Of a stretch of DNA of 64,000 nucleotides, positions 3,707 to 45,246 are shown piece by piece. The position numbers were made by a program, and so were the translations under genes. The notes under the pieces are model-generated. The model searched no databases and was not told the DNA's origin. It saw only the letters and a list, made by a program, of their open reading frames with translations. Position 1 is the first letter of the stretch. Each line of letters begins with the position of its first letter. The stretch comes from Escherichia coli (lineage in GTDB: Bacteria > Pseudomonadota > Gammaproteobacteria > Enterobacterales > Enterobacteriaceae), in assembly GCF_003334315.1 (NCBI RefSeq), contig NZ_QOWR01000025.1; one strand, 5' to 3'.

Positions 3707-4111
3707 ATGCGTGCTTTACCGATCTGTTTAGTAGCACTCATGCTAAGCGGCTGTTCCATGTTAAGCAGATCCCCTGTCGAACCCGTTCAAAGCACTGCAC
3801 CCCAGCCGAAAGCGGAGCCTGCAAAGCCGAAAGCGCCGCGCGCCACGCCGGTCCGAATTTATACCAATGCAGAAGAATTAGTCGGCAAACCGTTCCGCGA
3901 TCTCGGTGAAGTCAGTGGCGACTCTTGCCAGGCCTCTAATCAGGACTCTCCGCCGAGCATTCCAACCGCACGTAAGCGGATGCAAATCAACGCCTCTAAA
4001 ATGAAAGCCAATGCTGTATTACTGCATAGCTGCGAAGTCACCAGCGGTACGCCGGGCTGCTATCGTCAGGCTGTATGTATCGGCTCTGCGCTTAACATTA
4101 CGGCGAAATGA
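3707..4111 (+). CDS. rcsF: outer-membrane lipoprotein sensor of the Rcs phosphorelay
   Basis: 134-aa ORF with lipobox LMLSGCS, a Pro/Ala-rich linker and conserved C-terminal cysteines. Confidence 0.93.
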   Translation: MRALPICLVALMLSGCSMLSRSPVEPVQSTAPQPKAEPAKPKAPRATPVRIYTNAEELVGKPFRDLGEVSGDSCQASNQDSPPSIPTARKRMQINASKMKANAVLLHSCEVTSGTPGCYRQAVCIGSALNITAK

Positions 4112-7527: not shown

Positions 7528-7650
<123 letters not shown>

Positions 7651-23219: not shown

Positions 23220-23340
23220 AATAAACTCCTTACCATCCCATTTGCACCGGAGGGTGCAGTTCTTTGCGTGGCCCGGCGATCTTATATTGATCGCCTAAAG
23301 TCATCGCTACACTACCACTACATTCCTTTGTGGAGAACAC

Positions 23341-25791
<2,451 letters not shown>

Positions 25792-41392: not shown

Positions 41393-42817
41393 TTACTGCA
41401 TTAACAGGTAGATGGTGCTGTCGCCGCGCTGAATGTTGAGTGCCAGCACAGACGGTTTGCTGTCGAGAACTTTACGCAGTTCAGCGATGTTTTTCACTGC
41501 CTGCTGGTTCGCGCCAATAATCACATCACCTTTCTTCAGGCCGATCTGCGCAGCCGGAGTGCCCGTTTTCACGTTGTTCACTACCACGCCCTGATCTTTG
41601 CCTTTGTTGCTCATCTCAGCGCCTTCAATGCCGTTGAAGATGGAGCTGGAATCAACCTGATTCTGGCTGCTCTGCTGCAGTTCCAGGTTCACGTTAACCT
41701 GCTTACCGTCGCGCAGTAAGCCCAGGGTCAGTTTGCTGCCTACCGGCATAGTACCCACCTGAGCACGCAGTGCGGCAAAGCTGCTGATCGGCTTACCGTT
41801 CAGTGAGGTGATCACATCACCCGCTTTAATGCCCGCTTTTGCAGCGGAGGAATTAGGCAGAACCTGGCTTACGAAAGCACCGCGCTGGGCGTCAACTTTC
41901 ATCGCTTTCGCCAGTTCGGAGTTCAGCTCAGTCCCCATAATACCCAGCTCACCGCGTTTCACCTGGCCGTATTCCACCATCTGCGAGGTCAGGTTTTTCA
42001 CCATGTTACTCGGGATAGCAAAACCGATACCGATGTTGCCGCCGTCCGGTGCGAGGATCGCGGTGTTGATACCGATCAGTTCGCCGTTCAGGTTAACCAG
42101 CGCACCACCGGAGTTACCACGGTTGATCGCTGCATCGGTCTGGATGAAGTTTTCGTAGTTTTCGGCATTCAGGCCGCTACGCCCCAGCGCAGAGACAATC
42201 CCGGAAGTTACCGTCTCGCCCAGACCAAACGGGTTACCAATCGCTACGGTGTAATCACCCACGCGCAGTGCATCAGAATCCGCCATCTTAATTGCGGTCA
42301 GGTTTTTCGGGTTCTGGATTTGGATCAGCGCGATATCAGAGCGCGGATCTTTGCCAACCATCTTCGCGTCGAACTTACGGCCATCGCTCAGTTGAACTTT
42401 AATGACCGTCGCGTTATCAACAACGTGGTTGTTGGTGACGACATAGCCTTTATCGGCATCAATGATGACGCCGGAACCCAGCGCCATGAATTTCTGTTGC
42501 TGGCCGCCACCATTACCGCCCTGGCCACCCTGGCAGAACGGAGAGCTCTGGAACGGAGAACCTTCCTGGCAGAACGGAGAATCATCACCGAAGAACTGCT
42601 GGAAATTACGCGGCATACGCGGCGTATTAACGGTTGTGCTACCTTCTACGTTAATGCTGACCACTGAAGGCATCACCTTTTCGAGCATCGGTGCAAGGCT
42701 TGGCATCTGCTGGGCTGTCGTTGCTGAAGAAGTCTCAGCCGCCGTTGCAGAGAGCGGAGATAACGCCAAACCTAAACTCAGAGCCAGTGCACTCAGTGCT
42801 AATGTGGTTTTTTTCAT
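41393..42817 (-). CDS. degP: periplasmic serine endoprotease/chaperone DegP (HtrA)
   Basis: 474-aa ORF with signal peptide, trypsin-like catalytic domain (GNSGG) and two PDZ domains. Confidence 0.97.
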   Translation of the reverse strand: MKKTTLALSALALSLGLALSPLSATAAETSSATTAQQMPSLAPMLEKVMPSVVSINVEGSTTVNTPRMPRNFQQFFGDDSPFCQEGSPFQSSPFCQGGQGGNGGGQQQKFMALGSGVIIDADKGYVVTNNHVVDNATVIKVQLSDGRKFDAKMVGKDPRSDIALIQIQNPKNLTAIKMADSDALRVGDYTVAIGNPFGLGETVTSGIVSALGRSGLNAENYENFIQTDAAINRGNSGGALVNLNGELIGINTAILAPDGGNIGIGFAIPSNMVKNLTSQMVEYGQVKRGELGIMGTELNSELAKAMKVDAQRGAFVSQVLPNSSAAKAGIKAGDVITSLNGKPISSFAALRAQVGTMPVGSKLTLGLLRDGKQVNVNLELQQSSQNQVDSSSIFNGIEGAEMSNKGKDQGVVVNNVKTGTPAAQIGLKKGDVIIGANQQAVKNIAELRKVLDSKPSVLALNIQRGDSTIYLLMQ

Positions 42818-42859
42818 GTATTTCAGTCTCGATTAACAGATAACGCAAAATTGCTGTGT

Positions 42860-42892
42860 TCTTCAGATTCGTTTTATAGCCTGAAGTTCCGA
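42860..42892 (-). promoter_or_regulatory. sigma-E (RpoE) dependent degP promoter
   Basis: Minus strand reads GGAACTTcaggctataaaacgaaTCTGAagaacac: a sigma-E -35 GGAACTT (complement of 42884-42890) and -10 TCTGA (complement of 42864-42868); GTAAA/TTTAC motifs upstream (42911-42941) are consistent with a CpxR site. Confidence 0.8.
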
Positions 42893-42946
42893 ACTAAAGT
42901 TTCTGCAAAAGGTAAAAATTTATTGTTCGTCTTTACAAAAGCCTGG

Positions 42947-44464
42947 TTATTGTTCTACGGCCATCAGACGTCGGTATTCATCCCACGCATAGAGGTCGGT
43001 CATACCGCTGATATAATCCTGCAGCAGGCGGCAACGGTAATAATATTCCCATAGCGGAAACTCAGGAGAATCTGACGGTAATTTACTGACAGCCTCGACA
43101 TAGGCCAGCCGATGGCGCGTCGAGAGTTTGTGGAATAAGCGCGATTCAATAGGGAAACGTTTCACCCGTTCTTTTTCTACCAGTTCAGTAAAGTCTGATA
43201 ACGACAGGCTTAATAAAGGACGATAAATCTCTAATAATCCGCTAATGACCCGATAGCCCTGCAATTCAAGCTGCTCGACATCTGGATGGCTAAACACATG
43301 TTTTACAGCGACATTTTTATATAGCTTAAGAAGATCGCTGCATTCGCTGGCATCTTCCAATAATGCATGATTAAACGTTCCGGCGAAAATCGCAGGCAGA
43401 TTATCAATAAATCGTTGTGCCGCGTAGGGTACCAGTTTATTTAGGGTGTTTACCCGTAAATACATAAAAAACTGATCTTCCGTACTGCGGCTTAAACTAT
43501 TTGAGCGTGATTTTTCCCAGGCATTTTCAACCACCAGCGAAAAGAGCGAACCTTTCTCATGCTGGCCCCACGCTTCGTGCAAATGATGATAAAGCTGCTC
43601 AACGGTAAATATTCTTTTCTCTACCGCATCTTCAAGGTCTGCCACACAATAGGAGATGTCGTCGGCAGCTTCCATAATCCACGTTAATGGAAAACGACTG
43701 TAAAGCGCCAAATTAAGTTCTTTACGCAACCGGGCAATATAGGCTTCTTCAGAAAGATAATAACCCGGCTTTTTCATTAAATAGTGATGTGTCTCAGGCG
43801 TTTCGCCACGCCACCACGCCGGACGGGTATATTTTAAAATACCGCCAACCTGTGCCCAGGTGAGATTCATCCGCATCAATGTATGCACCAGGCGAATGCC
43901 TTGTGCATTCCCCTCAAAATGACATAAGTCCTGACGAATCTTGCGCCGCAGCTCGTTAAGCGGTTCTTCCCCGTCCCGTAAACGTAGTGCCGCCACGCTG
44001 CAGCGATCGTCAGTCAGAGGCTGGCTTTCGGCATCTTCCGGGTGCAAACGTTGGCGAAACCAGTCATTTATCGCCGCTTCGCCAAAATGACCAAACGGCG
44101 GATTGCCGATATCGTGCATCAGGCATGACATCTCAACAATGCTTTCAAAGGGACCGGTCAGTTCATCCAGGCCGTATGCTTCCAGTAATTTAAGCTCTTT
44201 CAGACGGCTTAAAATTTCTTTGGCGATGTAGCGCCCCACCTGCTGGACTTCCATCGAGTGGGTAAGACGCGTGCGCACGGCGGCATTGCGCTCCAGTGGA
44301 AAAACCTGGGTCTTTTGTTGCAGACGACGAATTGCCGGAGAGTTGATGATACGCCCGCGATCGCTCTCGAAGATCCGCAGGATCTCATGTTCGGTTTTAA
44401 CGCCCTGCGGTGAACGGTAACGACGATGCCAGTTTATTTTTTTTCGGAAATCAATCTGTGCCAT
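42947..44464 (-). CDS. dgt: dGTP triphosphohydrolase
   Basis: 505-aa ORF with HD-domain motifs. Confidence 0.95.
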
Positions 44465-44547
44465 GTCCTCTCCCGCGTGAGAAATACGCTTCCCCGTAAG
44501 CGCATGGTAAACTATGCCTTCAAATCGGGCTTATCGCGAGTAAATCT

Positions 44548-45246
44548 ATGAAAATCGGCATCATTGGTGCAATGGAAGAAGAAGTTACGCTGCTGCGTGA
44601 CAAAATCGAAAACCGTCAAACTATCAGTCTCGGCGGTTGCGAAATCTATACCGGCCAACTGAATGGAACCGAGGTTGCGCTTCTGAAATCGGGCATCGGT
44701 AAAGTCGCTGCGGCGCTGGGTGCCACTTTGCTGTTGGAACACTGCAAGCCAGATGTGATTATTAACACCGGTTCTGCCGGTGGCCTGGCACCAACGTTGA
44801 AAGTGGGCGATATCGTTGTCTCGGACGAAGCACGTTATCACGACGCGGATGTCACGGCATTTGGTTATGAATACGGTCAGTTACCAGGCTGTCCGGCAGG
44901 CTTTAAAGCTGACGATAAACTGATCGCTGCCGCTGAGGCCTGCATTGCCGAACTGAATCTTAACGCTGTACGTGGCCTGATTGTTAGCGGCGACGCTTTC
45001 ATCAACGGTTCTGTTGGTCTGGCGAAAATCCGCCACAACTTCCCACAGGCCATTGCTGTAGAGATGGAAGCGACGGCAATCGCCCATGTCTGCCACAATT
45101 TCAACGTCCCGTTTGTTGTCGTACGCGCCATCTCCGACGTGGCCGATCAACAGTCTCATCTTAGCTTCGATGAGTTCCTGGCTGTTGCCGCTAAACAGTC
45201 CAGCCTGATGGTTGAGTCACTGGTGCAGAAACTTGCACATGGCTAA
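44548..45246 (+). CDS. mtnN: 5'-methylthioadenosine/S-adenosylhomocysteine nucleosidase
   Basis: 232-aa ORF ([12 protein letters not shown]...), PNP/UDP phosphorylase fold. Confidence 0.96.

Follow-up and report, generated by a model that had tools for sequence, protein, structure and literature searches.

DegP is the main periplasmic quality-control protease and chaperone, and its locus raises the question of which elements between degP and its upstream neighbor, dgt, control its transcription. We addressed this question in a 64-kb stretch of the Escherichia coli chromosome (hereafter, the window), the minus strand of which has the K-12 orientation. A spacer of 129 nt (65% A+T) separates the two genes, running from the dgt stop codon at position 42947 to the degP ATG, the A of which is position 42817. 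When a 401-bp query around this spacer was searched against complete E. coli genomes, it was found in 5425 of 5426, where it was annotated with dgt and degP, and it was 100% identical to many of them. We are highly confident that the minus-strand region at 42860-42946 is the composite region already known to control degP in E. coli, i.e., a sigma-E promoter with an upstream CpxR input. The control region is already known and is ordinary textbook biology, so that an earlier sequence-only reading of this DNA was correct in calling it established. The gain over known biology is modest and consists of a precise parts list in window coordinates (Table 1). Three points go beyond the sequence-only reading: (i) an inverted, invariant CpxR pair, (ii) a second start over the -10 element, and (iii) a leader thermometer that is apparently weakened in E. 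coli.

Table 1. Features of the degP control region and other genes named in the text (window coordinates; offsets are relative to the start at 42857 unless indicated)
Feature	Position	Strand	Offset	Remarks
degP (htrA) CDS	41393..42817	-		474 aa; regulated gene; ORF list and RefSeq annotation, exact match
HtrA 5'-UTR RNA thermometer (Rfam RF02700)	42812..42857	-		77 bits vs gathering score of 52; model positions 1-46 of 46
Thermometer hairpin	42853-42824	-		fourU at 42850-42847 pairs with SD GAGA at 42830-42827; AUG at 42817
Mapped start, sigma-E promoter	42857	-		A; 40-nt 5' UTR; NC_000913 position 180844
Sigma-E -10, TCTGA	42863..42867	-	-10 to -6	keeps TC..A (T1, C2, A5) of TCAAA
Second mapped start	42864	-		G of TCTGA; 47-nt 5' UTR; NC_000913 180837, 28 reads (Cho et al. 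2014)
Promoter spacer (16 nt), CAGGCTATAAAACGAA	42868..42883	-		contains conserved CTATAAAA; TAAAAC at 42876-42871 is at -12 to -7 of the 42864 start
Sigma-E -35, GGAACTT	42884..42890	-	-33 to -27	7/7 consensus match (Rhodius et al.)
Conserved upstream activator block, TTTGTAAAGACGAACAATAAATTTTTAC	42912..42939	-	-82 to -55	proposed CpxR~P binding region; mean identity 0.93
Inverted TTTAC pentamer	42916-42912	-	-59 to -55	identity 1.00
ACAAT (degenerate)	42926-42922	-	-69 to -65	
GTAAA pentamer	42936-42932	-	-79 to -75	identity 1.00
degP1 CpxR site, GTAAAGACGAACAAT	42936-42922	-		starts with GTAAA; from a 41-site compilation of known CpxR sites, credited there to De Wulf 2002
dgt CDS	42947..44464	-		505 aa; upstream neighbor; stop codon bounds the spacer; ORF list and RefSeq, exact match
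degP2 listed CpxR site, GTAAATTACCGTCAG	43072..43086	-	-229 to -215	inside dgt CDS; compilation, attributed to De Wulf et al. 2002
skp	23219-22734	-		exact DNA match to annotated gene
bamA	25773-23341	-		exact DNA match to annotated gene
rseP	27155-25803	-		exact DNA match to annotated gene
nlpE	8432-7722	-		exact DNA match to annotated gene

The core of the region is GGAACTT-N16-TCTGA, which lies at 42890-42863 on the minus strand, 46 to 73 nt upstream of the degP ATG, and which the sequence-only reading had proposed as a canonical sigma-E promoter. The motif is present as described and is the sole match in the 64-kb window, in which 0.01 matches are expected from dinucleotide-preserving shuffles. 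A relaxed sigma-E scan of the window (AAC core, at least 5 of 7 matches in the -35, and TCnnA in the -10) returned 15 candidates, among which the degP motif was the only one with a full score. According to the architecture derived from 28 mapped promoters (Rhodius et al.), sigma-E promoters have a GGAACTT -35, a TCAAA -10 core, and a spacer of 15 to 19 nt, of which 16 nt is strongly preferred; a discriminator of 5 to 6 nt then leads to a purine at +1, 26 to 27 nt from the -35, and A/T-rich sequence lies upstream. The degP -10 deviates from the TCAAA consensus at two positions.

Published 5' ends fit this promoter. In two independent genome-wide maps of E. coli K-12, a degP start falls at NC_000913 180844, with 13 reads (Kim et al. 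2012) and with 20 reads, sigma binding S+E, and assignment E (Cho et al. 2014). Conversion through the degP ATG (NC_000913 180884 = window 42817) puts this start at 42857, and the span 42860-42946 ends 3 nt short of it. The starting base is an A located 5 nt after TCTGA, 26 nt after GGAACTT, and 40 nt before the ATG, a geometry that is textbook sigma-E. A start inconsistent with the -10 and -35 would have counted against the promoter, and since 42857 fits both elements, the mapped starts agree with the proposal. ChIP-chip at the degP promoter recorded binding of sigma-E and sigma-S but not of sigma-70, with a final assignment of "E" (Cho et al. 2014). Overproduction of sigma-E induced degP 56-fold, and degP heads the genes shown in that study's table as modulated by sigma-E; it is also a listed member of the conserved core of the sigma-E regulon.

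To place these elements in a comparative frame, degP loci were collected from 80 species-level Enterobacteriaceae genomes (DegP 83 to 100% identical), and 79 upstream regions were aligned. Our first promoter pattern matched 70 species, and the other nine were examined separately. The -35 (mean identity to E. coli of 0.97 across the 79 species) is GGAACTT in 53 of the 70 species, GGAACTA in 12, and TGAACTT in 5, and it is GGAACTT in the other nine. Of the 70 species, 64 have a promoter spacer of 16 nt, as do the other nine, and 6 have one of 17 nt; the -10 (mean identity, 0.95) reads TCTGA in 67, TCTAT in 3, and TCTTA or TCTCA in 9 of all 79 species. Elsewhere, mean identity to E. coli is 0.64 in the segment between the upstream block and the -35, 0.51 in the discriminator, and 0.34 in the bases right after the dgt stop; the values for the whole dgt-degP spacer and for the dgt 3' coding sequence are 0.77 and 0.75, respectively. 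The -35, the -10, and the upstream GTAAA-N15-TTTAC are retained in 79 of 79 species at near-fixed spacings, while adjacent bases drift. Judged from the alignment, such patchy conservation is the pattern expected of a promoter.

The sigma-E promoter call is supported by the mapped start, the ChIP-chip binding, the 56-fold induction, and the retention of its -35 and -10 in every aligned species. Sigma-E RNA polymerase recognizes GGAACTT and TCTGA 16 nt apart and initiates at the A at 42857, as the sequence, the published 5' ends, the published ChIP-chip data, and the published expression data indicate. The expression data further indicate that degP expression needs both sigma-E and CpxR.

Sigma-E is not the sole holoenzyme acting at degP, because a second start falls within the -10 and a sigma-S ChIP signal has been recorded. 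This second start, at 42864, is missing from the sequence-only reading; it lies 7 nt upstream of 42857. In the data of Kim et al. (2012), 42857 is the only degP start reported in E. coli, and 42864 does not appear. The position is the same as that of the 47-nt-UTR start of Salmonella htrA, a gene for which leaders of 40 nt, 47 nt, and 215/449 nt have been described; initially, the 40-nt transcript was detected under stress alone, and the transcript with the 47-nt leader was constitutive and low-level. In Klebsiella pneumoniae, the G of TCTGA is likewise a start (207608), preceded by TAAAAT at -12 to -7, and a sigma-E-type start is located 9 nt downstream. The corresponding p2-type -10 hexamer is TAAAAC in E. 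coli and in two of three sampled Escherichia relatives, and Salmonella and Klebsiella have TAAAAT; of the 79 species, 44 retain the hexamer's essential A2 and T6. Scanning 42700-43150 for a sigma-70 consensus and for terminators gave no match. The start at 42864 would arise from an overlapping -10 of the housekeeping or stationary-phase type (TAAAAC; TAAAAT in relatives) within the sigma-E spacer. The conservation of CTATAAAA in this spacer would then be due to the overlapping housekeeping-type -10 that lies there.

Upstream of the -35, the sequence-only reading had taken GTAAA and TTTAC pentamers as consistent with CpxR binding, a claim that is supported with refinements. Both pentamers are present and invariant, GTAAA begins the listed degP1 site, and degP is CpxR dependent. 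However, the two pentamers are inverted, 20 bp apart center to center, whereas the CpxR consensus is the direct repeat GTAAA-N5-GTAAA, and no match to this tandem with two or fewer mismatches was found in 42860-42946. In addition, degP is absent from the direct CpxR targets of a ChIP-exo study. A CpxR position weight matrix (PWM) built from 39 published sites, with the two degP sites left out, gave degP1 (GTAAA-N5-ACAAT) a score of 6.4, compared with a training median of 14.0. This score ranks 147th of 127,972 window positions (i.e., 146 other positions score at least as high). Pentamer enrichment in the spacer was not significant (2 observed vs 0.50 expected; P = 0.086). Given the missing tandem match, the weak PWM score, and the nonsignificant pentamer count, sequence alone does not establish a CpxR site at degP.

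The site is instead supported by conservation and genetics. The exact GTAAA-N15-TTTAC is unique in the window (0.09 expected) and is present as a single copy in each degP locus with upstream DNA among the approximately 80 Enterobacteriaceae species sampled, always with the N15 length fixed. It is separated from the -35 by 21 nt in 62 species and by 20 nt in 8, and the bases between drift. Identity in the 28-bp upstream block as a whole exceeds that of the adjoining dgt coding sequence (0.93 vs 0.75). With respect to genetics, degP is upregulated 27- to 32-fold in cpxA24 or with nlpE overexpression, and a cpxR knockout lowers its expression by a log2 value of -2.2 to -2.5 (4- to 6-fold). CpxR overexpression alone did not induce degP, for which its authors blamed limiting sigma-E. 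The CpxR footprint at degP reportedly spans roughly -80 to -30. We infer that CpxR~P binds the conserved block at -82 to -55, contacting GTAAA, the degenerate ACAAT, and the inverted TTTAC; since these three pentamers are spaced 10 bp center to center, they would lie on one face of the helix. From this position, fixed 20 to 21 bp upstream of the -35, CpxR would boost promoter output when the Cpx pathway is on, e.g., via NlpE.

A more distal listed CpxR site, degP2, lies inside dgt. No other sequence near degP matches the tandem consensus at two or fewer mismatches, and the PWM score of degP2, 12.25, ranks 10th in the window. Across species, degP2 is poorly conserved (mean identity, 0.55), with practically no constraint on its second pentamer. 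degP2 might serve a far-upstream promoter; no E. coli start near ~43032 or far upstream inside dgt is reported in Kim et al. (2012) or Cho et al. (2014). If the two genomes are colinear, ~43032 is the position matching the Salmonella 215-nt-leader start, and degP2 is located ~40 to 54 nt upstream of it. The hexamer TATTAT, at 43045-43040, precedes the same position.

Three other explanations of these elements were weighed. That the motifs arose by chance in an A/T-rich spacer and play no part in regulation is next to inconceivable: the pentamer count is indeed compatible with chance, and weak CpxR-like matches abound (69 at two or fewer mismatches in the window), but a whole sigma-E motif is hardly expected in the window, the mapped starts lie exactly where this motif predicts, and each of the 79 species retains every element and its spacing. 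We ruled this explanation out on the expectation of 0.01, the mapped starts, and the conservation. It is also quite improbable, though far from absurd, that the upstream block, or its A/T-rich TTTAC half, is a UP-type element for the alpha subunit of RNA polymerase or a site for another DNA-bending protein, with CpxR acting mainly through the site in dgt or indirectly. TTTAC at -59 to -55 does coincide with the A/T-rich, UP-like conservation seen at -48/-49 and -57/-58 of sigma-E promoters (Rhodius et al.), the CpxR site within the span is a weak PWM match next to the 12.25 of the dgt site, and ChIP-exo did not call degP a direct target. However, the invariant bases include the G and C of GTAAA/TTTAC and a fixed CAAT, which goes beyond A/T richness; GTAAA, the canonical half-site of CpxR, begins a site already listed as known; the block reaches to -82, past the usual UP elements; and the distal site in dgt, on which this explanation leans, is poorly conserved (0.55 identity).

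The remaining alternative, which we consider unlikely, assigns the two stress inputs to two interleaved promoters, so that CpxR would mainly activate the overlapping 42864 promoter (-10 TAAAAC/TAAAAT, read by sigma-70 or sigma-S) and not the sigma-E holoenzyme. The second start has been mapped in E. coli, Salmonella, and Klebsiella; 44 of 79 species have a good hexamer of the sigma-70 type as the second -10; and the locus carries a sigma-S ChIP signal. Cpx induction of degP is also said to be only partly sigma-E dependent, which we count on the same side. Against this, E. coli has a C at the critical -7 position of the hexamer, no sigma-70 ChIP signal is recorded, and the sigma-70 scan finds nothing in the region. 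Furthermore, 42857 is the sole E. coli start in Kim et al. (2012), limiting sigma-E was held responsible when CpxR overexpression left degP uninduced, and the Salmonella 47-nt transcript is low-level and constitutive. We retain the composite of a sigma-E promoter and an upstream CpxR input as the preferred reading.

Downstream of the promoter, the degP leader matches the HtrA RNA thermometer family. The RF02700 match has its first position at the mapped +1 and extends through the AUG, just outside 42860-42946, and it is missing from the sequence-only reading. FourU thermometer function has been shown for Salmonella htrA by SHAPE and reporter assays, and the hairpin is contained wholly within the 40-nt leader. 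Among 20 diverse relatives, 7 passed the RF02700 threshold. The E. coli hairpin does not exceed shuffled sequence in stability (fold z = +0.69), and a covariation test across 79 species gave no support for the hairpin (76.8% of cells paired vs 76.6% in shuffles; 195 of the 500 shuffles reached the observed value). A U-to-C change at leader position 32 (window 42826) breaks one lower-stem pair in E. coli, and because of it, predicted masking of the SD at 30 C is 0.48 in E. coli, compared with 0.99 in Salmonella. A weaker thermometer is predicted for E. coli than for Salmonella. The 40-nt leader would form a weak fourU hairpin, partly covering the ribosome-binding site and melting as the temperature rises, as shown in Salmonella. 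An energy calculated for the Rfam hairpin on the E. coli leader was discarded, as the structure forces an A-C pair.

The window also contains other envelope-stress genes. All four genes that had been named from the sequence (i.e., nlpE, rseP, skp, and bamA) are present on the minus strand as exact DNA matches. The accompanying suggestion was to look for sigma-E motifs upstream of rseP, bamA, and skp: the relaxed scan detected no canonical sigma-E motif directly upstream of these three genes or of nlpE, and the mapped starts of rseP, bamA, and skp (Kim et al. 2012) are without GGAACTT-type -35 elements. The only other good sigma-E-like motif in the window, GGAACTA-N16-TCGAA at 26709-26682 on the minus strand, lies inside rseP, ~0.9 kb upstream of bamA; on motif grounds, it is a candidate internal sigma-E promoter for bamA-skp-lpxD. 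Starts in Kim et al. (2012) do not match it. On the plus strand, rcsF (3707-4111) encodes the outer-membrane lipoprotein sensor of the Rcs envelope-stress system, and the 64 kb therefore hold sensors or effectors for three pathways of envelope stress, namely Cpx, sigma-E, and Rcs.

Two further CpxR-related sites and three RNAs were observed in the window. A listed skp CpxR box, GTAAAACCTGGTAAG, at 23340-23354 on the minus strand, overlaps the bamA stop codon and lies at ~-52 to -38 of the published skp start (K-12 200399 = window 23302). Expression of skp is upregulated ~4-fold in a cpxR knockout, which suggests that CpxR represses skp. The highest CpxR PWM score in the window (16.65) belongs to GTAAATCTATGAAAA, at 44540-44554 on the plus strand, upstream of the dgt start; the same site was listed as a putative CpxR site for dgt, mtn, and btuF in a published genome screen. 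Rfam matches above the gathering score were obtained on the minus strand for the CssrA sRNA (32907-33016), the t44 (tff) RNA upstream of rpsB (33855-33941), and naRNA4 just past the nlpE end (7567-7643).

The degP locus is a natural test case for the activation of an ECF-sigma promoter by a response regulator. As a speculative extension, to which we give rather low credence, the invariant GTAAA-N15-TTTAC, with its fixed CAAT and its 20 to 21 bp to the -35, may mark a non-canonical mode of CpxR binding, perhaps suited to the sigma-E holoenzyme or to switching between 42857 and 42864. The same speculation holds that the Escherichia lineage weakened both the second -10 (TAAAAT to TAAAAC) and the thermometer (U32C), moving degP control towards transcription. 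If true, the binding mode could involve, e.g., two oppositely oriented dimers or a head-to-head arrangement with a shared degenerate center.

Compared with known systems, the sigma-E element is identical to the E. coli degP promoter of the core sigma-E (RpoE, sigma-24) regulon, sharing GGAACTT-16-TCTGA, the mapped +1, and sigma-E binding in vivo; relative to the regulon consensus, its -10 is off TCAAA at two positions and is overlapped by a second start, and there is otherwise no substantive difference. With CpxR~P boxes such as those of cpxP, ppiA, and yccA, the degP site shares a perfect GTAAA half-site, a listing (as degP1), Cpx dependence, and a position upstream of the -35, as expected for an activator. 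It differs from them in that the second direct pentamer is the degenerate ACAAT, the perfect second pentamer is inverted at 20 bp center to center, the tandem PWM score is low, and the target promoter is read by an ECF sigma factor and not by sigma-70. The closest parallel to the arrangement of starts and leader is Salmonella enterica htrA, with its p1 to p3 promoters and thermometer. The E. coli leaders have the same lengths (40 nt and 47 nt), and the E. coli leader passes the Rfam gathering score over the full model, with the fourU opposite the SD and a bulged C, but E. coli differs in the U-to-C change at position 32 and in having TAAAAC in place of TAAAAT at the p2-type -10.
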